A DNA stretch of 64,000 nucleotides from a candidate division TM6 bacterium GW2011_GWF2_37_49 (lineage in GTDB: Bacteria; Babelota; Babeliae; Babelales; RVW-14): positions 85,326 to 149,325 of the forward strand of contig LBTE01000002.1 in NCBI GenBank assembly GCA_000989955.1, in the 5' to 3' direction. The notes under the pieces are model-generated. The model did no database searches. It worked only from the letters and a program-made list of their open reading frames with translations, and had not been told where the DNA came from. The position numbers and the translations under genes are program-made. Below are positions 1,408 to 35,559 of the stretch, in pieces. Each line of letters begins with the position of its first letter. The stretch's first letter is position 1.

Positions 1408-2490
1408 TTAATCAATGTATAGGTGTAATGCGGCTAAATAAGAGGATATAGTTTTTCCGGGTACTATTTCTGCTTCAAGGTTTGCACCCTTTTCTTTAAG
1501 AAGTTTTGCAACTTCCATGCAAACTGATTCGTATTTTGTTCCTTCATTTACGCCTTCTAGTGCGTTTAAAAGAGGCGTACGTTTTTCGCTCCGAAAATAA
1601 AAGGCCATATATTTAGTAGTTGATATAGCATCGATATCGGCGCCATTTTCCAGAAGCGTCCTTACTGCATCGATGTTTCCCAATCCAGCTGCAAGGTGAA
1701 GTGGCGTTATCCCTTCTGTGATGGCTTCTGGGTAAATTTTGTTGTATTTTGCATTAACTACAGCACCAGCCTTAATCAATAATTTGATGGTTTCAGAGTT
1801 GTCCATTATTGCTGCGAAATGTAGGGGTGTTAATCCATTAAAGCATCCTGTAGCAATATTAGCATTGATGTTTGTTTTATTTTTAATGAGTTTTTCTACG
1901 TCTTTCTTACAATTTTTAACAACTGCAAGGTGAAGGGGAGCTCCCTTAAATTCACCTTCTATACCTGTTTTCAATCCATGCCTTAGAAGCATAATTGCAA
2001 TTTCCGAATTGTCATTCTCGACAGCGTAACTAAACGCTGTTCTGCCGTTCAAATCAGTTTTGTTAAGATCTGCTCCGCCACCGATAACAATTCTTGCTGT
2101 TATTGTGCTATTTTGTTTAGCTGCTATTAAAAGTGGTGTATCGCCTTTGTATAGTCCGTCATGAGTAACAGCCTCTAAGTTTAGTCCGTATTGAATAAGC
2201 TTTTTTGTGAGCTTTTCATCACAAAGGATTACTGAATCGATGAGTAGAGTGCAACCATGCTCATCTACATCGCTAAGGTGAGGGTCTTTTCCAGCTATAG
2301 CTTTATCGAGTGAGTTTAAGTGGCTTGGATTATAATGATAATAATAAGCAAATTCTCTGGCAGTCTTACTCATTCCATACGTTTGTGGAGAATATTGCGA
2401 GCTTGCTTGTTGTTCAACAATTGCGTCTGCGTCTGCGTGTAAATTACACAAGCTGACTGACATTAACAGTAACATCAATATTTTTTTCAC
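1408..2490 (-). CDS. Ankyrin-repeat protein with N-terminal signal peptide
   Basis: MKKILMLLLMSVSLCNLHA signal. Multiple ANK units, e.g. GDTPLLIAAKQNSTITARIVIGGGADLNKTDLNGRTAFSYAVENDN, GLTPLHFAAIMDNSETIKLLIKAGAVVNA, GITPLHLAAGLGNIDAVRTLLENGADIDA. Confidence 0.88.
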   Translation of the reverse strand: MKKILMLLLMSVSLCNLHADADAIVEQQASSQYSPQTYGMSKTAREFAYYYHYNPSHLNSLDKAIAGKDPHLSDVDEHGCTLLIDSVILCDEKLTKKLIQYGLNLEAVTHDGLYKGDTPLLIAAKQNSTITARIVIGGGADLNKTDLNGRTAFSYAVENDNSEIAIMLLRHGLKTGIEGEFKGAPLHLAVVKNCKKDVEKLIKNKTNINANIATGCFNGLTPLHFAAIMDNSETIKLLIKAGAVVNAKYNKIYPEAITEGITPLHLAAGLGNIDAVRTLLENGADIDAISTTKYMAFYFRSEKRTPLLNALEGVNEGTKYESVCMEVAKLLKEKGANLEAEIVPGKTISSYLAALHLYID

Positions 2491-2643
2491 GACTACCCCT
2501 TCAGGTTTATAAATAAAAATTAGTACATAACCTACTAGCTTCTATTCTAAAGAAATTACAAACATTGTCAAATAGTAAATTATTTGGCATAGGTTGAATG
2601 TTTTGTTATGATTTAACAATTCAGCTCAAATCCCTAATAAATT

Positions 2644-2800
2644 CGGGCATACATGGGATGTTGTGCGCTAAAGGCTTGATTTTGCCGGCTTTTTCAAGGA
2701 ATTGACAAGTTTTTAAATGCGGCCTGCCAGGCATTATCTGGTCGGGTCTGCCGAATGGGTTTTGAAAAAAGTGCGAAAAGTCGTGGTGGGTTTTGAAAAA
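2644..2800 (+). repeat. Dispersed intergenic repeat family, copy 2 (forward)
   Basis: CGGGCATACATGGG ... TTTTTAAATGCGGCCTGCCAGGCATTA ... GGGTCTGCCGAATGG ... AAGTGCGAAAAGTCGTGGTGGG. Tail almost identical to copy 1. Confidence 0.85.
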
Positions 2801-2805
2801 ACAAG

Positions 2806-2838
2806 AAAGCCACGATTGTCTTAGGATCGTGGCTTTTT
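2806..2838. terminator. Hairpin terminator fused to repeat copy 2
   Basis: AAAGCCACGAT-tgtcttagg-ATCGTGGCTTTTT, the same stem as at 1364-1394. Lies 46 nt downstream of the minus-strand CDS 2884..3567. Confidence 0.7.
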
Positions 2839-2883
2839 AAGCAAGGTATTTAAAATACGGAGAATATTTTAAATGCCAGTTTT

Positions 2884-3567
2884 TTAATTCATTTTTTGAT
2901 ATCGTAAAACTACCTTACCCAAGATTCTTAGGGTATCCTTGCCTTTAACAAGGGCTACGGGGGCCTTTTTATGATTTACAGATTCAAGCATTGTTATATT
3001 ATCTGAAAAATTGATTTGCATGATTGTTCGAGCTGGGTTTTCATTGCCGTATTCAACTGCAACGATATCGCCGGATTTGGTCCAGCTGGCTGGGGAGATG
3101 ATTAACATGTCACCCTTGACGAAATTTGGGGCCATTGCGCTGTCTTCGATTGCTAGACAGAACATGCTGTCGTCGTCAATACCGATAACTGTTGCAAATT
3201 GCTCTGCATATCCGGTTTTGGCTTGTAAAATTTGATTATTATAAGCTGATGGCTGGGCTGGAATTTCGCCTACCACTGGGACAACTTTTACTTTGAGATT
3301 AAAATTGGATATCTGAGCTTGGGCTTCTTCCGGCATTTGAATGCTGACTGGAAGGCCGTTTTCGATTGTAAAATTTTCAAAAAGATCTGTTGGGCGGATT
3401 TCAAAGGCTTCTGAGAGCTTCTTTAATGCGTCTTCATTCCAACGTCTTGTTCCATTTTTTATATGAGTTAAATAACTCTCTGACATGCCGGTTTTCTCAG
3501 CTAAAACTTTGGTTGTCCATCGTCTTTCTCTGAGCATTTCTCTAACTCTTAATCTTGTTGACACCAT
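2884..3567 (-). CDS. XRE-family HTH repressor fused to S24 (LexA/CI-like) peptidase domain
   Basis: N-terminal HTH: WTTKVLAEKTGMSESYLTHIKNGTRRW. C-terminal S24-like: VPVVGEIPA..., EDSAMAPNFVKGDMLII and ILGKVV. GGAGG Shine-Dalgarno sits upstream of the ATG. Confidence 0.75.
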   Translation of the reverse strand: MVSTRLRVREMLRERRWTTKVLAEKTGMSESYLTHIKNGTRRWNEDALKKLSEAFEIRPTDLFENFTIENGLPVSIQMPEEAQAQISNFNLKVKVVPVVGEIPAQPSAYNNQILQAKTGYAEQFATVIGIDDDSMFCLAIEDSAMAPNFVKGDMLIISPASWTKSGDIVAVEYGNENPARTIMQINFSDNITMLESVNHKKAPVALVKGKDTLRILGKVVLRYQKMN

Positions 3568-7630: not shown

Positions 7631-9124
7631 ATGATCGTAGCCATTTTAAAACAAAAATTTTGTGATCATTATCGATTTTATGCTTCTCTTTTTATTTTTA
7701 TAATAATCTTATGTTGCCTGTATTTGCCGTTTTATATATGGGGTTTATTTGCCGATGATTTCGGCATAATTCGTCATGTAATGGATGTTGGTTTTAAGAA
7801 AATAGGGACCTTTTTTTATGAGGGAGAAACTTTTAGTGCAGTATTAAACCCAAATTATGTGAATACGCTTGATAATTTTTTAGGCGGTCTCTATCGTCCA
7901 ATGGTTTTCATTTATAGTCTATTGCAGGTGCATTTTTTTGGTCCAAATCCTTCAGCATATCTATTTGTGAGTATTTTTTTACACTCGCTAAATTCCGTGT
8001 TTTTATTCAACATAATTTATACGTTTGAAAAGACATTTGCGGCTGTAGTGTTAGCATTGTGTTTTGCGTTTCATTCCAGCTTATTTAATTGGCTTGGTTG
8101 GTTTTCTGGGCAGCAGTACATAATCGAATTAACCTGTCTTATTTTGATTTTATTAACACTTAAAAAATATATTGTGTCTCAAAAATATTATTTTTATTTT
8201 TTATCAATGTTTTTGTATCTCTTAAATGTTTTTCAACGAGAAATGATGGTAGTATTCCCTTTTTGGGTTGTGTTTTTTTGTAGTTTTTATAATTTTAAAG
8301 ATGACCAGATATCGTTCAATGTTATTCGTGGGCTAAAGTTATCGTGTGGTTATTTTTTTGCGTTGTTTACGTATATAATTTCTAGGGGATTAGTTTTTTC
8401 CTTCAATATAAAAACCACATCCAATGCAACTTTGATGTTTGATCTAAATTTTAAGAGTTTTATATTAAGAATGAGCGAAAGATTTTACGATTTCGTTACA
8501 ATTTTATCTGATTATCTTGGCCTAAGAATTTTGCCGCAAAATCACCAATTTGTTAAAGGTGGCTTAATTGCTATATTTATTGGCGTTTTGGTTTTTTTGT
8601 TTCTAAGAAATAGCAAAAAGGGCTTAGTTATTTTAACCTTTATTTCGTGTGTTATGTTTAGCTGGATTCCAATTTTATTGACGCATCAACCTCGTTATAT
8701 TTACGTTGGGCTCTTTTTCTTTATGATTAGTCTTGCCTTGTTGTACCATTTTTCTGACTTGAATAAAAATTGTAAAAAATGTTTATTGGTACTAGTTTTA
8801 GCTTACATATCCATTAATTATGTTTGCTTGGCACACGGAATGGAGTATTGCAGAATTAAGTACTCGTGTGCTACTGAAAAATTAAAAAAATTAGGAAGCA
8901 ACATCAACCTTATCTTGAAAAAATCAAAAAGTTTTGGGCCAATATATTTCCATAATTTACCTGCCGATTTTACTTTTGCAACAAATCAGGCAATACGTCT
9001 CTATTCTGATTGTCCTAGGCTTCAAGTTTATGAAACTGATGATAAAGCTAAATATAAAATCAATGGCATTGAGGTAACCTGGGATGATGTAAAGAATGAT
9101 TTTCATGTAGAAGTTATCCATTGA
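7631..9124 (+). CDS. GT-C fold membrane glycosyltransferase (ArnT/PMT-like), paralog 1
   Basis: About 11-13 TM. First-loop acidic motif FADDFGIIRH, then GGLYRPMVFIYSLLQVHFFGPNPSAYLFVSIFLHSLNSVFLFN. Clear paralog of 16432..18093 (VGDDYGNILH ... VYYRPMAFVFTYIQSIFFGFNPYGYFLIFILFHAINAALIFN). Confidence 0.55.
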   Translation: MIVAILKQKFCDHYRFYASLFIFIIILCCLYLPFYIWGLFADDFGIIRHVMDVGFKKIGTFFYEGETFSAVLNPNYVNTLDNFLGGLYRPMVFIYSLLQVHFFGPNPSAYLFVSIFLHSLNSVFLFNIIYTFEKTFAAVVLALCFAFHSSLFNWLGWFSGQQYIIELTCLILILLTLKKYIVSQKYYFYFLSMFLYLLNVFQREMMVVFPFWVVFFCSFYNFKDDQISFNVIRGLKLSCGYFFALFTYIISRGLVFSFNIKTTSNATLMFDLNFKSFILRMSERFYDFVTILSDYLGLRILPQNHQFVKGGLIAIFIGVLVFLFLRNSKKGLVILTFISCVMFSWIPILLTHQPRYIYVGLFFFMISLALLYHFSDLNKNCKKCLLVLVLAYISINYVCLAHGMEYCRIKYSCATEKLKKLGSNINLILKKSKSFGPIYFHNLPADFTFATNQAIRLYSDCPRLQVYETDDKAKYKINGIEVTWDDVKNDFHVEVIH

Positions 9125-9208: not shown

Positions 9209-10600
9209 ATGGAGAGTAGTGTTTCGAACGAGTTGACTGCTCAGGAACTTGAGCTACAAATTCTTGAATTGGTTAAGCTGCATCATCTTGCGGTTAAAAA
9301 AGAGTCTTTAAAGTCTGATAATTATAAAATTCATTACGCTGGCCGATGTTATGATGAAAACGAGGTTGTAGCTGCTGTAAAAAATCTGCTCAAATTTACA
9401 TTAACTTACGGCAAGCAAGGCCTGGCATTTGAGCGGGAGCTTGCAAGGTTTGTGGGAGTGCCAAATTCATTTGTAGTTAATTCAGGCTCATCAGCAAATT
9501 TAGTTGCCATTTCTTCACTATGTTCAAACCAGCTATGTGACGAGGCGTTGAGCTATGGCGATGAAGTTATTGTTCCTGCCGCGTCTTTTCCCACAACCGT
9601 TGCTCCGATAATTCAAAACGGACTAATTCCTGTTTTTGTTGATTCAATGCTTGGTTTTTATAATCCAAGCATTGAATCAATTAAGCGGGCATACAGCCCA
9701 AAAACTCGAGCTGTTGTTTTTGCGCATACGCTTGGCAATCCTGCGCAAATTGACCAGATCAAAAATTTTTGTATCGAAAAAAATCTATTTTTGATTGAGG
9801 ATTGTTGTGATGCATTGGGCTCAAAATTTGGTGAAGCAAGGCTTGGAACATTCGGAGATCTTGCCACATTCTCATTTTATCCTGCCCATCACATAACCAT
9901 GGGGGAGGGTGGTGCTGTGGCTGTTTCAAATCCGAAATTTGCAAAAATCGTTGATTCGTTGCGTTCATGGGGCAAGGACTGTTGGTGTGTTCCTGGTGAG
10001 ACTCATTGCCAAGGTGCTTGCAGGCGTAGATTTGGAATGAAGTTTGGAGAACTGCCTTTGGGTTATGATCACAAATATGTTTATACAAATATTGGCTATA
10101 ATCTAAAGCCACTTGATTTGCAGTGCGCAATCGGGCTTGAGCAACTCAAAAAATTATCAATGTTTATCGAGAAACGAAAATACAATTTTAATTTTTTATA
10201 CGATTTTTTCAAAAATTATCAGGATTTGTTTATTTTACCACAATCTTTACCTTTGGCTGATCCATGCTGGTTTGCGTTTCCTTTGACCATTAAATCAAGT
10301 GCTGGATTTACACGACTTGAGTTAACAAAATACTTCGAAGAAAATAATATAGAAACGCGCGTTTTGTTTGCTGGGAATATTATTCGGCAACCTGCATTCA
10401 TGAATATTAAATGTAGAATTTCGGAACGCCTTGATAATTCAGATAAAATTATGCACGATTCGTTTTTTATAGGTGTTTATCCAGGTTTAACGCAAAATTG
10501 CTTAGATCGGATTACAAAGACTTTTAAAGATTTTTTAAATCAAAAAATAAGCAAAAAAATATTTTTAAAAAAATTGGGAGATAGTTGTGAAGCGGAATGA
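9209..10600 (+). CDS. rfbH: CDP-4-keto-6-deoxy-D-glucose-3-dehydrase (E1, RfbH/DdhC-like), DegT-family PMP enzyme
   Basis: DegT/DnrJ fold. His replaces the PLP lysine (SFYPAHHITMGEGG). Cys cluster C-X57-C-W-C-X6-C-X3-C (DCCDAL ... WGKDCWCVPGETHCQGACRRRFG). Sits next to rfbF and rfbG homologs. Confidence 0.8.
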   Translation: MESSVSNELTAQELELQILELVKLHHLAVKKESLKSDNYKIHYAGRCYDENEVVAAVKNLLKFTLTYGKQGLAFERELARFVGVPNSFVVNSGSSANLVAISSLCSNQLCDEALSYGDEVIVPAASFPTTVAPIIQNGLIPVFVDSMLGFYNPSIESIKRAYSPKTRAVVFAHTLGNPAQIDQIKNFCIEKNLFLIEDCCDALGSKFGEARLGTFGDLATFSFYPAHHITMGEGGAVAVSNPKFAKIVDSLRSWGKDCWCVPGETHCQGACRRRFGMKFGELPLGYDHKYVYTNIGYNLKPLDLQCAIGLEQLKKLSMFIEKRKYNFNFLYDFFKNYQDLFILPQSLPLADPCWFAFPLTIKSSAGFTRLELTKYFEENNIETRVLFAGNIIRQPAFMNIKCRISERLDNSDKIMHDSFFIGVYPGLTQNCLDRITKTFKDFLNQKISKKIFLKKLGDSCEAE

Positions 10601-11413
10601 TTTACCGGGGGGTTTGGGACGCGATTGCGCGAGGAAACTGAGTTTAGGCCAAAACCGATGGTGCCAATCGGTGGCAAGCCTATTTTGTGGCATATAATGA
10701 AATATTATTCACACTTTGGTTTTTATCGATTTATCATTTGCCTTGGATACAAAGGTGAGATGATAAAAAATTATTTTTTGAACTACAGACTTCATGACAT
10801 CGATTGTACCATTGATACAAAAACCGGAGTCGTGAGCGAACATCAGGTGAATGATGAAGGGTGGGAGATTTCGCTTGTTGATACAGGCCTTGATTGTATG
10901 ACTGGCGGGCGTGTTGCGCGAGCTGCTCGATATGTTGATACGAAGCGATTTTTGTTAACTTACGGAGATGGCCTTGCTGATGTTAATATTTCGGAGTTAC
11001 TAAATTTTCATATTTCTCACGGCAAACTTGCAACTCTAACCGGAGTTAATCTACCGTCTCGTTTTGGCAACTTACTTATAAATGACGATCAAGTCCTTGC
11101 ATTTCTCGAAAAAAAACAGGTTAGCGATGAATGGATTAATGGTGGTTTTTTTGTACTAGAACGCGATTTTTTGAATTATGTATCTACTGATTCAAGCTGT
11201 GTTCTTGAGCAGCAACCGTTGGCAAATTCTGCTGCTGATGGGCAATTAATGGTGTATAAACATTCTGGTTTTTGGCAGTGCATGGATACATTGCGCGAAC
11301 GAGATTTGCTTGAAAAATTATGGGAAATAAAAGCTCCTTGGAAAGTATGGGCTGATGTTGAAAAAATTTATAAACCCGCCACGAAAGAGCAGTCACACCG
11401 CTTACAATTCTAA
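10587..11413 (+). CDS. rfbF: Glucose-1-phosphate cytidylyltransferase (RfbF/DdhA-like), 5' end frameshifted at the G6 tract
   Basis: Body reads [55 protein letters not shown], typical of RfbF. The GGxGTRL signature is encoded upstream of the only in-frame start (TTG 10625). The reconstructed N-terminus is [17 protein letters not shown] if one G is added or a -1 slip occurs. Confidence 0.75.
10607..10612 (+). promoter_or_regulatory. G6 homopolymer at the 5' end of rfbF (frameshift / phase-variation candidate)
   Basis: ACCGGGGGGTTT. It separates a GTG-initiated frame (10587, SD GGGAG at 10576-10580) from the main rfbF frame. In that frame it forms a G_GGG_GGT X_XXY_YYZ heptamer. Confidence 0.6.
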
Positions 11414-11433: not shown

Positions 11434-12468
11434 ATGGAGAATGAGTTCAAATATTGGAAAGATAAAAATGTTTTTATTACCGGGGTTACTGGCTTACTTG
11501 GTCCATGGCTTATAAAAGAGTTGTTGAGTCAAGACGCAAATGTTTTTGTTCTTGTTCGCGATTTTGTTGCAGATTCAACATTTTTTACTGAAGGCCTTGA
11601 TAAAAAAACTAACGTTATTTTAGGGGATTTGCTTGATTTTAGCTTGTTACAGCGTGTTTTAAATGAATTTGATATAAACACTGTTTTTCATTTAGGAGCT
11701 CAGGCAATTGTTGGCATTGCAAACCGTTCACCAATTTCCACTTTCCGTTCGAATATTGAAGGATCGTGGAATTTACTCGAGGCTTGCAGGCTTTCGCCCT
11801 GGGTAAAAAAAATAGTTGTAGCCTCCAGTGACAAGGCTTACGGCGCTCAAGAAAAACTGCCGTACAAGGAAGATGCGCCGATGCAAGGTCGTCATCCGTA
11901 TGATGTTTCCAAAAGTTGCACAGATTTACTGGCGCAGTCGTATTTTCACACATATCAGCTTCCGGTTTGCGTGACGCGATGTGGTAATTTTTTTGGTGGA
12001 GGCGATTTGCATTTAAACCGAATTATACCTGGAACTATAAAAAGCGTTCTTCAAGAACAGCGTCCAATTATACGATCTAATGGGTTATTTATTCGAGATT
12101 ATATTTACGTAAAAGATGTTGTGGACGCATATTTAACATTAGCAGAAAAAATGGATGACAGCTCAATTGTGGGGCAGTGTTTTAATTTTAGTACAGATCA
12201 ACCTTTTAATGTAATTCAAATTGTTGAACTAATTCTTGATGTTATGGGGTGTAAGCATTTAAATCCGATAATTCAAAATCAGGCGAGCAATGAGATTCCA
12301 GAGCAGCACCTTTGTTCGGAAAAGGCGCGTAATATTTTAGGATGGCGTGCAAAATACGGTGTGTGTGCGGGTCTTGGTGAGACTGTGGAGTGGTATAAAA
12401 AATTTTTATCAAATCAAAGCGTCTTGGTTTTAAATGAAAAAAATTTCAATCGTAGCAGCGTGTTATAA
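11434..12468 (+). CDS. rfbG: CDP-glucose 4,6-dehydratase (RfbG/DdhB-like), extended SDR
   Basis: YWKDKNVFITGVTGLLGPWL, VFHLGAQAIVGIANRSPISTFRSNIEGSWNLLEA, SSDKAYG, HPYDVSKSC (YxxxK), RCGNFFGGGDLHLNRIIP. Confidence 0.7.
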   Translation: MENEFKYWKDKNVFITGVTGLLGPWLIKELLSQDANVFVLVRDFVADSTFFTEGLDKKTNVILGDLLDFSLLQRVLNEFDINTVFHLGAQAIVGIANRSPISTFRSNIEGSWNLLEACRLSPWVKKIVVASSDKAYGAQEKLPYKEDAPMQGRHPYDVSKSCTDLLAQSYFHTYQLPVCVTRCGNFFGGGDLHLNRIIPGTIKSVLQEQRPIIRSNGLFIRDYIYVKDVVDAYLTLAEKMDDSSIVGQCFNFSTDQPFNVIQIVELILDVMGCKHLNPIIQNQASNEIPEQHLCSEKARNILGWRAKYGVCAGLGETVEWYKKFLSNQSVLVLNEKNFNRSSVL

Positions 12469-13372: not shown

Positions 13373-14351
13373 TTATTTGATTACGGGCGGAACAGGGTTC
13401 ATAGGCTCAAACCTGGTTCGTCGTTTAGTTTTATACGAAGCTGGTAATGTTTTTTTAATTGCGGAAAACAATGCGGATTTGTGGCGGTTGAATGATATTA
13501 TTTCGGAGTTGACCGTATTTTACGTAGATTTGGCTGATTTTAAAAATATAAATAGTATTGTTAAATCAGTAAATCCAGACGTTGTTTTTCATCTAGCTTC
13601 TTACGGAGGTCTGCCGCTTCAGTCAGAGCAGCGTAAGATTTTTGATATAAATTTTTATGGTACAGTCAATCTTTTGAATGCATGCAAAGATGTTGGTTTT
13701 GATTGCTTTATCAACACCGGAAGCTCATCTGAATACGGCATGAAGGATTCTGCGATGCATGAGTCTGACGTTGTTTTGCCGATCAGTGATTATGGCGTTT
13801 CAAAGGCTGCAGCGACTCAATTTTGTGTTAAGGAGGCTATTTTTAATAAATTGCCAGTTTATACACTGCGGCCATTTTCAGTTTACGGTGACTATGAGAT
13901 GCAAAACCGCCTTATATCCACTGTTTTGACTAGTGCGTTGACGCATAATCAAATCAATTTATCTTCTGAATCATGCGTGCGCGATTTTATTTATGTTCAA
14001 GACATTGTTGATCTTTATTTAAAAATAGCAGCAGTTAAACCCGCTCGAGATTTTGTTTTTAACGGTGGAACTGGTATACAATCAACAATTAAGGATGTTG
14101 TTGAAGTGGTTGAATCTTTGATTGGATCAAGTTTAAATGTTAGCTGGAATACTTCATTGCCAAGGCCATGGGAGCCAAAAAATTGGAAAGCGAATATTGA
14201 TCTTGCTTTAAATGTATTGAATTGGCAGCCAAAATATTCTTTGCAGCGTGGGTTATCACAATCTTTAAATTGGTTTAAAAATAATCTAAATTTTTATGTG
14301 AAAAATTATGAAGACGTTAAATCTTGCCGAGAAAAATCGAGCTCTTTGTAA
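13365..14351 (+). CDS. NAD(P)-dependent sugar epimerase/4-ketoreductase (extended SDR)
   Basis: LITGGTGFIGSNLVRRL Rossmann motif. SSSEYG and YGVSKAAA (YxxxK). Confidence 0.75.
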   Translation: MINYLITGGTGFIGSNLVRRLVLYEAGNVFLIAENNADLWRLNDIISELTVFYVDLADFKNINSIVKSVNPDVVFHLASYGGLPLQSEQRKIFDINFYGTVNLLNACKDVGFDCFINTGSSSEYGMKDSAMHESDVVLPISDYGVSKAAATQFCVKEAIFNKLPVYTLRPFSVYGDYEMQNRLISTVLTSALTHNQINLSSESCVRDFIYVQDIVDLYLKIAAVKPARDFVFNGGTGIQSTIKDVVEVVESLIGSSLNVSWNTSLPRPWEPKNWKANIDLALNVLNWQPKYSLQRGLSQSLNWFKNNLNFYVKNYEDVKSCREKSSSL

Positions 14352-15144
14352 AAAGGCCCAAGAAGTCAGGCTTTCGATTTTAGATATGGTGACTAATGCA
14401 AAGAGTTCTCACATCGGATCTGCATTTTCAATTGTTGAAATTTTGACAATTATTTACAACGAATTTATGAGTACAAATTTAATTAAAAATAAGGCCAAAA
14501 ATCGCGATTATTTTATTTTGAGCAAAGGGCATGCTGCATCGGCATTTTATGCGACCCTTGCAAGCGTTGGAATTGTTAGTTCGGATCTGTTGAGTACATT
14601 CTATCAAGACGGCAGCGTATTGGCTGGTCATCCGACAAAGGACTGTGTTGCTGGAGTTGAGGCAAGCACCGGCTCGCTTGGACATGGGTTGTCGATGGCA
14701 GTTGGAATAGCGTTTGCATGCAAGCAAGATGGCCTGTCCAGCAAGGCTTATGTCTTGCTTGGCGATGGCGAGTGTCAGGAAGGTTCTGTGTGGGAGGCCG
14801 TTATGCTTGCAGTGCGCTTAAAGTTGAATAATTTAATTATAATAATTGATAGCAATAAATTACAGGGTTTTGATAGAACAGAAGATCTTTTGCCTTCCAG
14901 TCTTAAAAACATGTTTGAGGGTTTTGGTTGCAACTGTTTATCTGTTGACGGGCATGATTTTATTGAGCTGAGAACAGCTATAGGATTTTGCGGCCAAACA
15001 CACGGCCCAGATGTTATTATTGCTAACACGATAAAGGGCAATGGTGTAAGTTTTATGCAAGATAAATTGGAATGGCACTACAAGTCATTGAGCCCGGAGC
15101 AATACATTTTAGCAAAAAATGAAATTTTGAAACATAAGATTTGA
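14308..15144 (+). CDS. Transketolase, N-terminal (ThDP-binding) subunit
   Basis: SSHIGSAFSIVEIL, LSKGHAASAFYATLA, STGSLGHGLSMAVGIA, LLGDGECQEGSVWEA, IIIDSNKLQ. Confidence 0.85.
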   Translation: MKTLNLAEKNRALCKKAQEVRLSILDMVTNAKSSHIGSAFSIVEILTIIYNEFMSTNLIKNKAKNRDYFILSKGHAASAFYATLASVGIVSSDLLSTFYQDGSVLAGHPTKDCVAGVEASTGSLGHGLSMAVGIAFACKQDGLSSKAYVLLGDGECQEGSVWEAVMLAVRLKLNNLIIIIDSNKLQGFDRTEDLLPSSLKNMFEGFGCNCLSVDGHDFIELRTAIGFCGQTHGPDVIIANTIKGNGVSFMQDKLEWHYKSLSPEQYILAKNEILKHKI

Positions 15145-15503: not shown

Positions 15504-16466
15504 ATGAGAACGACTTTTATTAAAAAATTAATTGAATTAGCTGAGGTTGATCCAAATATTTACTTGATGATTGGAGATTACGGATTTTCTGTTGTTGAGC
15601 CGTTTAAGGAAAAGTTTAATTCAAGATTTATTAACGCTGGCATAAGCGAGCAAAATATGATTGGTGTTGCAGCAGGTCTTGCACTTGCAGGTAAAAAGGT
15701 TTTTGTTTATTCGATTGTGCCGTTTGTTACGATGCGTTGTTTTGAACAGGTCAGAATTGATTTGTGTTATCAAAACCTTCCTGTGCGAATTATTGGAATA
15801 GCTGCTGGGTTTGCCTTTGGGCCTGCAGCTTCAACACATCATTCAATTGAAGATATAGCGCTTATGAGTTGTTTGCCAAACATGACAGTTATTAGTCCTG
15901 CAAATAGTTTTGATCTGGAGGCGCTTTTGCCGCAGGCAAATAATTTACCAGGTCCAGTTTATTTCAGGCTTGGCAGAGGTGGCTCTGGAATGGCCTATCC
16001 AGCTTTTCAAAATATTGAATTATCAAGGCCTGCAGAGATATTAAAAAGTGATAAAGTTTTATTTTTGGTGACGGGCGAAATTTTTTCTGTGGCTTTCGAT
16101 ATTGTTAAAAAATTGCGTGATTTTGGTCTTGATTGTGGACTGATTAATGTTCATACGATAAAACCGTTAAAACTTGATTTTATTTTATCAAAAGCAAATT
16201 TTTTGCAAGCAATTTTTACAATTGAAGAACATGGATTAGTTGGTGGTCTTGGCCAACAAGTTGCCAATTTTTTGTGCCAAAATTTGGATAAGAAAATTAT
16301 ATTCAAGACGTTTACTGCGGCGGATCAATATTTTCACGAAATCGGTTCACGCGATTATTTGCTAAAAAAATCAGGGTTGGAGGTTGAAGCTATTTGTTCG
16401 GAAGTGTTGCATATTTTAGGAACGAGAGAAAATGTTATTGAAAAAGTTAAGCAATATTATTTGTAA
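15504..16466 (+). CDS. Transketolase, C-terminal (pyrimidine-binding) subunit
   Basis: FINAGISEQNMIGVAAGLALAGKKVFVYSIVPFVTMRCFEQVRIDL, HHSIEDIALM. The ATG at 15504 is preferred over the TTG at 15465, which lies inside a repeat fragment. Confidence 0.85.
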   Translation: MRTTFIKKLIELAEVDPNIYLMIGDYGFSVVEPFKEKFNSRFINAGISEQNMIGVAAGLALAGKKVFVYSIVPFVTMRCFEQVRIDLCYQNLPVRIIGIAAGFAFGPAASTHHSIEDIALMSCLPNMTVISPANSFDLEALLPQANNLPGPVYFRLGRGGSGMAYPAFQNIELSRPAEILKSDKVLFLVTGEIFSVAFDIVKKLRDFGLDCGLINVHTIKPLKLDFILSKANFLQAIFTIEEHGLVGGLGQQVANFLCQNLDKKIIFKTFTAADQYFHEIGSRDYLLKKSGLEVEAICSEVLHILGTRENVIEKVKQYYL

Positions 16467-18093
16467 CCATTTGTTTTTGTTTATAGCGGTTTTTGGAATT
16501 GTGTTTGCCTCTTTAACGCTGCCATTTGGATATTGGGGTTTTGTGGGCGATGATTACGGCAATATCCTGCATTCACAACTGCAAAGTTGGTCCGATTTTA
16601 TCAAATTATTTTATGAGGGCGATGCCTGTTCTTTTTATCAAGCTTCAAATTATGTTCCATCAGAACCAAATTTTTTTAGCGTTTATTACCGGCCGATGGC
16701 CTTTGTGTTTACGTACATTCAATCTATTTTTTTTGGTTTTAATCCGTATGGTTATTTTTTGATTTTTATCCTGTTTCATGCGATAAATGCTGCATTAATT
16801 TTTAACATTTTTAGTTGGTTTATCCCTTTGGGATGGGCTTTTTTGATGGCCTTATTTTTCGCATTTCACATTAGTTTGGGAAGCTGGTTTGGGTGGTTGC
16901 CAGCATTCCAGCAGATTATAAATCTAACATTGTTGTTACTGATTTTAATTTTACTCAAGCAGTATCTTAAAACACGGGAAATTTTTTATTATGTTGGTGC
17001 GGTTTTTTTGTTTTTGGTATCATTGTTTAACAGAGAAACATTTTTAGTATTCCCATTTTTGTTAACTTTGGGAGTAATTATTTTTCGAGATAAAGCCGAA
17101 ACTTTGTGCCACTCGGTATTTCGCGCTATAAAAATTAGTGCATGTTTTTGGCTTGCATTCAGTGTTTATTTTTATACACGCCTTTATTTTTTTCCAATAA
17201 AATTTGTACATTCAGGTCTATGTTTTCATGACGGAGTAATTAGTGTAAGCAATCGTTTTTTAGAAGCAGTTTCATTTTTGTCTGATTTATTTGGGCTGTC
17301 TTTTATGCCTGCTGGTCATAGATTATGCAAAGGCGTTTTGATTATTTCAATTTTTACTTTGATTTTCACGTTATTTTTAAAGAATGAACAAATTAAAAGA
17401 CTATCATTTTTAGCCTTTTCTTTACTTGCTTTTATGTGGCCGGCTTTTTTGACGCATTATCTTCCCAGATCATTGTATGAATCAGCACTTTTTTTGTTTT
17501 GTTTAATTTTAATTTTTCTTTTTAAATACAGCACAATTGATTGTTTTGGGTTTCAGATTGTTAAAAAATTTATATTTGGTCTTGGCGTTTTTATGTGTGC
17601 ATTTTTCATGATAAAAAGCATGAAAACATCAGAGCAATTAATTTTAAAAATTAATACAGCGTTCGCTGAGCTATGTCTGAATAAAAGCATTATCAATAAG
17701 CCTCTTTGCTTTGTTGAATTGCCGTGTAGTTTTATCGCAACCGGCGTGGCTCAAGCGGTTTGGATGCGTGGAGTTAATAAAGGGTTGCCAATTTTTGAAT
17801 TACAATTACCAATCAAAGTTTTTAAAGAAGAGTGGAATAAAATTATTCCGATGCATAAAAGATTTGTAAATATTGAAGTGGTTAACACGGGATTGCGAGC
17901 AGTTGCATGCTTGCCGAATGTTTTATGTTTTGATGTTACGCCTGGTGCTCAAAATATTTTAATAAATAAGACTGTTCGTGGAAATGTTGTTGATGTTTTT
18001 TTACCTTTAAGCGACAAATGGCCGATGGACAGGCTTGTGTTTATCGGTTGGGATTATGATGCTTTTAAATTTAAAATTTTGAATGGTGTTTAA
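16432..18093 (+). CDS. GT-C fold membrane glycosyltransferase (ArnT/PMT-like), paralog 2
   Basis: See 7631..9124. Same DD loop motif, YRP motif and TM architecture. Confidence 0.55.
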   Translation: MLLKKLSNIICNHLFLFIAVFGIVFASLTLPFGYWGFVGDDYGNILHSQLQSWSDFIKLFYEGDACSFYQASNYVPSEPNFFSVYYRPMAFVFTYIQSIFFGFNPYGYFLIFILFHAINAALIFNIFSWFIPLGWAFLMALFFAFHISLGSWFGWLPAFQQIINLTLLLLILILLKQYLKTREIFYYVGAVFLFLVSLFNRETFLVFPFLLTLGVIIFRDKAETLCHSVFRAIKISACFWLAFSVYFYTRLYFFPIKFVHSGLCFHDGVISVSNRFLEAVSFLSDLFGLSFMPAGHRLCKGVLIISIFTLIFTLFLKNEQIKRLSFLAFSLLAFMWPAFLTHYLPRSLYESALFLFCLILIFLFKYSTIDCFGFQIVKKFIFGLGVFMCAFFMIKSMKTSEQLILKINTAFAELCLNKSIINKPLCFVELPCSFIATGVAQAVWMRGVNKGLPIFELQLPIKVFKEEWNKIIPMHKRFVNIEVVNTGLRAVACLPNVLCFDVTPGAQNILINKTVRGNVVDVFLPLSDKWPMDRLVFIGWDYDAFKFKILNGV

Positions 18094-35389: not shown

Positions 35390-35465
35390 GGGTTGCTAGC
35401 TCAATTGGTAGAGCAACAGACTCTTAATCTGCAGGTTCAGGGTTCGAGTCCCTGGCGACCCACCA
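35390..35465 (+). tRNA. tRNA-Lys (anticodon CTT), CCA encoded
   Basis: Acceptor GGGTTGC/GCGACCC. Anticodon loop CTCTTAA. T-arm CAGGGTTCGAGTCCCTG. Ends ACCA. 76 nt. Confidence 0.92.
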
Positions 35466-35472
35466 GACATCC

Positions 35473-35559
35473 GCAAGGGTGGCGAAATTGGCAGACGCAC
35501 TGGCCTTAGGAGCCAGCCCTCGAAAGAGGATAGGGGTTCAAGTCCCCTCCCTTGCACCA
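35473..35559 (+). tRNA. tRNA-Leu (anticodon TAG), long variable arm, CCA encoded
   Basis: Acceptor GCAAGGG/CCCTTGC. Anticodon stem-loop CTGGC-CTTAGGA-GCCAG. Variable arm CCCTCGAAAGAGGAT. T-arm AGGGGTTCAAGTCCCCT. 87 nt. Confidence 0.92.

Follow-up and report, generated by a model that had tools for sequence, protein, structure and literature searches.

A 16-nt gap private to the deposited assembly interrupts the cytidylyltransferase gene rfbF beside a G tract in a TM6 (Babelota) genome

Introduction

In the deposited genome of the candidate division TM6 bacterium GW2011_GWF2_37_49 (GenBank GCA_000989955.1), the 5' end of the glucose-1-phosphate cytidylyltransferase gene rfbF is broken next to a run of six G residues. 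Is this break a switch that the organism uses, a site of recoding or an error in the record? We analysed a stretch of 64,000 nt of contig LBTE01000002.1 (forward-strand positions 85,326 to 149,325), hereafter the window, to which all coordinates refer unless otherwise stated. The original prediction, made from this sequence alone, had described the break as a one-base lesion in the G tract and had offered three readings of it: an assembly error, slipped-strand phase variation and programmed -1 frameshifting. The 5' end is indeed broken. However, the difference from the intact gene amounts to 16 nt, and of the three readings an assembly error is the most likely, the other two not being supported.

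The rfbH–rfbF junction as deposited

The features of the junction are collected in Table 1. The upstream gene encodes a product scoring 582 bits against the NCBIfam RfbH profile (cut-off 423). Translation confirmed that rfbH closes at its TGA and that the body of rfbF continues in the same frame. The nucleotide-binding signature GGxGTRL, which reads GGFGTRL in this genome, does lie upstream of TTG 10625, the sole in-frame start of the body and the one given in the list of open reading frames (ORFs); the 251-aa product of the public record begins at ATG 10658. The GTG behind a Shine-Dalgarno-like GGGAG was likewise found as described. Its frame does run into the G6 tract and terminate, but not 29 codons after the GTG, as had been stated: the TAA lies 36 codons after the GTG and 29 after the G tract. 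This tract is the sole run of at least six G or C residues in the window, against 140 runs of A and 184 of T. The heptamer G_GGG_GGT (10607-10613) formally has the shape X_XXY_YYZ, and the addition of one G, or a slip by -1, does join the two frames.

Table 1. Features of the rfbH–rfbF locus in window coordinates
Feature	Position	Strand	Basis
rfbH/ddhC-type CDP-6-deoxy-4-keto-hexose 3-dehydrase gene, 463 aa	9209..10600	+	ORF list; NCBIfam NF011936 RfbH
GGGAG, Shine-Dalgarno-like, 6-nt spacer to the rfbF start	10576..10580	+	Sequence
GTG, true rfbF start codon	10587..10589	+	280-aa product called here in ENA, Logan and JGI assemblies
rfbF body, glucose-1-phosphate cytidylyltransferase; its frame differs from that of its start codon in the window	10601..11413	+	ORF list; TIGR02623; 1TZF
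Deletion point, GGTGATGATTTTGGCG (16 nt) absent	10606..10607	+	Logan contig comparison, alignments, blastn, X7 contig
G6 tract, remnant of GCG-GGG-GGG (G7, Ala-Gly-Gly) of the intact gene	10607..10612	+	Alignment with intact loci
TAA closing the frame of GTG 10587; artefactual 36-codon ORF	10695..10697	+	Translation
CDP-glucose 4,6-dehydratase-like SDR gene, next pathway step	11434..12468	+	TIGR02622, 201 bits, below the cut-off of 278

The intact gene in independent assemblies

In public groundwater-metagenome runs, 96% of the sampled words of the locus were present. A Logan contig of 4,613 nt from two runs of an aquifer study (X1 and X2; depth 34.2) matches window positions 10300-10900 exactly, except that GGTGATGATTTTGGCG is inserted behind position 10606. 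The intact context reads TTGGCGGGGGGGTTT, in which G7 follows a GGC motif, whereas the deposited junction has TTTACC joined directly to GGGGGGTTT. With the insert, rfbF begins GTG AAG CGG AAT GAT TTA CCG GTG ATG ATT TTG GCG GGG GGG TTT GGG ACG and forms a single frame of 280 aa that opens at GTG 10587 and has its stop at 11413. The missing 16 nt comprise the codons for V-M-I-L-A plus one base, and the placement of the deletion has a 2-nt ambiguity because of a GG microhomology.

The 16 nt were present in all five loci fetched from independent re-assemblies (ENA ERZ27254744, on a 101-kb contig; Logan SRR3309375; ENA ERZ909587, from SRR1658471; ENA ERZ27254734; and ENA ERZ909592, from SRR1658473), as judged by alignment and by blastn, which returned a single 16-nt gap. 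These loci cover at least three runs of the same study, and the ENA re-assemblies were made with MEGAHIT. The 16 nt recur in X7, on a contig of 151 nt from a freshwater study unrelated to these, and the words spanning the intact junction had a share of 1.00 in both X1 and X2.

Protein records give the same picture. Four members of the 90%-identity protein cluster around the best match bear on this locus. P0121 is the window's own truncated product of 251 aa, starting at ATG 10658 on a 208,562-nt contig, and this truncated form occurs in the NCBI record only. P0122, found on Logan and ENA contigs, has 280 aa, a body identical to that of the window and an intact N-terminus. P0123 is the intact 280-aa form from a 114-kb ENA contig, with two residues that differ near the C-terminus. 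P0124, on a 129-kb JGI contig, is the same intact protein as P0122 with its GTG start written as V.

Beyond the junction, the window was compared with independent assemblies at 587-21413, 18821-39959 and 41083-62426, which together span about 62 kb. The 16-nt gap was the only indel. The only mismatches were two SNPs (11360 and 11374), found in one strain (locus L005), both non-synonymous and both in rfbF. Since some 62 kb are otherwise indel-free and near-identical, the window and the independent contigs represent the same population and not a diverged pseudogene lineage. The 16-nt difference in rfbF is private to the deposited record, and the gene is intact elsewhere. The sequence facts on which the original prediction was built are thus right, but its diagnosis is wrong: what it took for a G-tract switch is a gap of 16 nt that no other assembly shares.

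The true start of rfbF lies within rfbH, with a 14-nt overlap in the intact gene pair that is also seen in L001, L002, L005, L006 and L090. Read-through of the TGA or an RfbH-RfbF fusion was considered and rejected, as the two genes occupy different frames in the intact allele (1623-3014 and 3001-3843 in L001).

The N-terminal strand of the enzyme

When proteins were searched with the frame of the body, thousands of glucose-1-phosphate cytidylyltransferases were retrieved, the named close matches being from 'Candidatus Babeliales' (Dependentiae/TM6), and the best match of the intact protein among genome contigs was a Babeliales MAG, at 74%. The intact P0122 aligns with the solved Salmonella enterica enzyme (RfbF/DdhA; 1TZF_A) with an E value of 3.9e-81, residues 9-260 against 6-258, and scores 343 bits against TIGR02623 (cut-off 300.25). 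The 262-aa ORF of the window scores 321 bits (profile positions 15-255) and the 251-aa ORF 302 bits (25-255). This score is no test of function, because it does not tell the defective forms apart.

What distinguishes these forms is the beta-1 strand. In 123 of the 123 homologues retrieved, the hydrophobic pentapeptide V[VMI][IL][LF]A (or MILA) stands directly before GGxGTRL, and the corresponding segment of 1TZF reads VILAGGLGTRL. The intact allele resembles the Salmonella enzyme (PDB 1TZF/1WVC; TIGR02623) in this VILAGGxGTRL-type start as well as in its profile score. The window copy differs from it in being cut off from its start codon and in having lost the five beta-1 codons. The VMILA codons are absent from the window, where no start codon stands in frame with both strand and signature; in all other assemblies of the same organism the strand and GGxGTRL are in frame with the start. 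The product obtained by joining the two frames had been called a canonical RfbF N-terminus. This does not hold, as the pentapeptide is missing from it. Read from the codons, the joined product would lack the beta-1 strand leading into the nucleotide-binding loop. Adding one G, or slipping by -1, would still give a defective protein, because five VMILA codons and one base are absent.

Conservation of the G tract and of the translation start

All four relatives aligned at the locus (74-90% protein identity) encode VMILA. Their Ala-Gly-Gly codons are GCG GGT GGG, GCG GGA GGT, GCC GGG GGA and GCC GGT GGC, so that in each the tract is either broken up or missing (GGGTGGG, GGGAGG, CGGGGGA and CGGTGG, in the contexts GCGGGTGGG, GCGGGAGGT, GCCGGGGGA and GCCGGTGGC, respectively). 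A single uninterrupted rfbF frame was found in these relatives and in all other assemblies. The original prediction had named related genomes beforehand as the place where a switch could be refuted, namely by orthologues that are uninterrupted and lack the homopolymer, and such orthologues are what we found. As for the translation start, relatives have a GTG at the equivalent position of the alignment, GGGAG is kept in L006, and GGAG or GAGAG is found in L090 and L091. The more distant L007 does not share this Shine-Dalgarno sequence.

An assembly artefact as the probable cause

An artefact of assembly or curation is the most likely explanation because the gap is private to one assembly and every other assembly is intact, including independent assemblies of the same samples. 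That the gap is technical in origin, rather than a rare real allele, we consider probable, its cause being inferred from the position of the gap and from the re-assemblies. The gap coincides with the single GGC+G7 motif of the 64 kb. Sequence-specific errors in Illumina data are set off by GGC motifs and 'significantly hinder de novo assembly' (Nakamura et al. 2011, PMC3141275). The case resembles mis-assembly of this kind in that a private indel at GGC+G7 is contradicted by all re-assemblies. It differs in its size: errors at homopolymers or at such motifs are typically substitutions or indels of 1-2 nt, and a clean loss of 16 nt is unusual. This clean loss suggests a mis-join or a gap-closure step.

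The proposed sequence of events is as follows. The organism, probably a member of the Dependentiae/Babeliales living in an aquifer, would carry an ordinary intact gene for a 280-aa glucose-1-phosphate cytidylyltransferase, translated from GTG 10587. Illumina reads would degrade at the GGC+G7 site, where local assembly or automated error correction may mis-join them, and the deposited contig would in this way have lost GGTGATGATTTTGGCG immediately 5' of the G run. The G6 tract, the TGA in the frame of the body and the 'slippery heptamer' would then be by-products of the deletion, and there would be neither a switch nor a frameshift. We also considered two separate events, an in-frame deletion of 15 nt between CGG repeats and a slip from G7 to G6. 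This combination is possible, but it is less parsimonious than one event of 16 nt.

A possible real loss-of-function allele

Alternatively, the deletion may be genuine. A sub-population, or the dominant strain of one sample, would then carry a 16-bp deletion in rfbF that arose by slippage between GG microhomologies and disabled the first step in the synthesis of CDP-deoxyhexose, and the depositor's assembler would have followed that allele. We consider this unlikely, although several observations speak for it. The deletion stands in the deposited record itself, from which the NCBI protein P0121 was called at ATG 10658. De Bruijn-graph assemblers normally need read support and rarely invent a 16-nt deletion, and the 2-nt GG microhomology at the breakpoints is compatible with replication slippage. 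The sole other variants in about 62 kb, the two non-synonymous SNPs of L005, also fall in rfbF, a hint of population variation in this gene. Loss-of-function variation often targets surface-glycan genes.

Against a real allele, the intact form was recovered in the five re-assemblies (at least three runs, all of the same study), in the JGI contig and in one run of another study. The flanks are 100% identical, which argues against a separate lineage, and the site is the single hardest-to-sequence motif of the window. Furthermore, no contig of the four runs X1, X2, X5 and X7 fitted the deletion junction when Logan contigs, which drop rare variants, were aligned with the locus. The contigs of X3 and X4, with a depth of about 4x, are interrupted at 10508 and 10649 and leave the junction uncovered. 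X5, a sediment run, contains only a relative of about 90% identity that does not cover the junction. In the metatranscriptome X6, nothing was found of the rfbF locus. A gapped DNA pattern for both alleles had no match in the JGI metagenome_contigs, and exact look-ups of P0121 and P0124 returned no contig.

The word index requires more care. Queries centred on the deletion junction gave shares of 0.25 and 0.50, and queries restricted to junction-spanning words gave 0.50 for each of X1, X2 and X5. GG both opens the deleted block and follows it, so that two 31-mers, those that begin at 10577 and 10578, do not differ between the alleles. We therefore rejected the share of 0.50 as evidence of the deletion: in X1 and X2 it fits these non-discriminating 31-mers, and no contig aligned with the locus fits the junction. 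For X5, where this explanation is incomplete, the share of 0.50 counts as a minor point against an artefact.

A further step would be that the deletion segregates in the aquifer population as a recent knock-out and, together with the rfbF SNPs, reflects ongoing selection on the surface glycan, which would be lost by irreversible deletion and not through a reversible switch. We regard this as rather improbable, slightly more so than the existence of the allele. If it were true, the presence or absence of the glycan would be under selection by, for example, the host or a phage. Should the deletion be real, it would amount to simple loss of function in a glycan gene, and its interest would be confined to local population genetics.

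Proposed phase variation and programmed frameshifting

Slipped-strand phase variation, in which changes in the length of the poly-G tract would switch rfbF and the glycan on and off, is very improbable. Phase-variable poly-G/C contingency loci are found in the LOS and capsule genes of Campylobacter, Haemophilus and Neisseria. The likeness to them is a G homopolymer near the 5' end of a gene for glycan biosynthesis: G7, or G6 in the window, lies within the first 30 codons of a gene of such a pathway, and the 64 kb have no other long G run. However, G7 is shorter than typical contingency tracts, and here the tract is not conserved, does not vary in length among assemblies and owes its frame break to a 16-nt deletion. 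The window and the intact gene are separated by these 16 nt and not by one G, as a change in tract length would demand. G7 was found in 5/5 of the fetched loci, with no length heterogeneity among independent assemblies; a frame restored by one G would still leave the VMILA strand absent; and the tract has not been maintained in the four relatives, in which it is interrupted or absent.

Programmed -1 ribosomal frameshifting on G_GGG_GGT, which would join the frame of GTG 10587 to the rfbF body, is effectively refuted because the intact gene has a single frame in all other assemblies, and we give it practically no credence. A slippery heptamer is present in the GTG frame and a -1 slip does connect the frames, but this holds for the deleted form only: the heptamer exists only through the deletion, the intact allele being one frame, and neither the heptamer nor a two-frame architecture is conserved in relatives. 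We found no stimulatory RNA structure downstream of the heptamer when 10607-10700 (94 nt) was folded against 200 shuffles (-24.0 kcal/mol against a shuffle mean of -24.8, z = +0.28, with 119 of the 200 shuffles folding at least as well), and the product of the slip would be without the beta-1 strand of the 123/123 homologues. The likeness to the -1 frameshift sites of dnaX and IS elements (X_XXY_YYZ plus a stimulator) is confined to the shape of the heptamer; the differences are the lack of a downstream structure, of conservation and of a two-frame gene in the real organism.

Gene neighbourhood and implications

The locus is an ordinary CDP-deoxyhexose-type glycan cluster. Its genes follow the order RfbH-like dehydrase, RfbF, CDP-glucose-4,6-dehydratase-like SDR, GT2 polyprenyl-phosphate glycosyltransferase-like protein, second SDR and split transketolase, and relatives have the same gene order at this locus. 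As in known rfb/ddh clusters, rfbF lies between RfbH-like and CDP-glucose-4,6-dehydratase-like genes. The GT2 polyprenyl-phosphate glycosyltransferase-like gene and the split transketolase set the present cluster apart from them.

A homopolymer beside a frame break in a MAG can mimic a contingency switch or a frameshift site, and caution is warranted. Comparison of the same locus across independent re-assemblies exposes a private gap of 16 nt and an ordinary gene. As annotated in the public record, the 251-aa 'cytidylyltransferase' is truncated and without its nucleotide-binding motif; it should be kept out of pathway inference, counts of pseudogenes and catalogues of frameshifts. Most likely, rfbF has no G-tract 'switch', and the organism has an ordinary gene for a known enzyme.

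Variation in rfbF

Over 20.8 kb, the window and L005, an independently assembled contig from a sister sample, differ by just two substitutions. Both lie in the 3' tail of rfbF, 14 nt apart, and both alter the protein, EKIYK becoming KKIYN in P0123, the L005 product. Together with the deletion, these substitutions place all differences found across the ~62 kb compared within rfbF.

In a word-index query with window 10577-10636, X5, a sediment metagenome run of another study, was credited with half of the sampled words spanning the junction, the deletion point in rfbF. However, none of the X5 contigs matched window 10560-10618 at ≥80%. The share of junction words is probably index noise, or an effect of how 'same sample' additions are scored.

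Features located in the window
Feature	Window position	Remarks
Ankyrin-repeat gene	1408-2490	
LexA-like HTH+S24 gene	2884-3567	
Large protein flanking the sugar cluster	7631-9124	497 aa, visibly hydrophobic
rfbF substitutions	11360 and 11374	L005 10790 and 10804
Transketolase-like gene, N-terminal half	14308-15144	Within the CDP-sugar cluster
Transketolase-like gene, C-terminal half	about 15504-16466	Within the CDP-sugar cluster
Large protein flanking the sugar cluster	16432-18093	553 aa
tRNA-Lys(CTT) and tRNA-Leu(TAG), tandem	35390-35559	Rfam/ARAGORN

Base composition, structured RNAs and putative affiliation

The GC content of the window is 31-41%, and homopolymer runs of at least 6 nt are distributed with extreme asymmetry among the four bases (140 of A, 184 of T, a single one of G and none of C). 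Rfam and ARAGORN retrieved no structured RNA in the window besides the two tRNAs. The ankyrin-repeat and LexA-like genes are consistent with a putative Dependentiae-like symbiont.

The sugar cluster and its flanks

Neither of the large proteins flanking the sugar cluster had a match in NCBIfam or Pfam; these proteins could be a polymerase, ligase or transferase of the glycan. Inside the cluster, ~360 nt lie between the two transketolase-like halves, and the split arrangement is also kept in L006, the locus of a relative with the same gene order. The pair suggests a step that adds a two-carbon branch to the sugar or extends its chain, rather than a function in pentose-phosphate metabolism.
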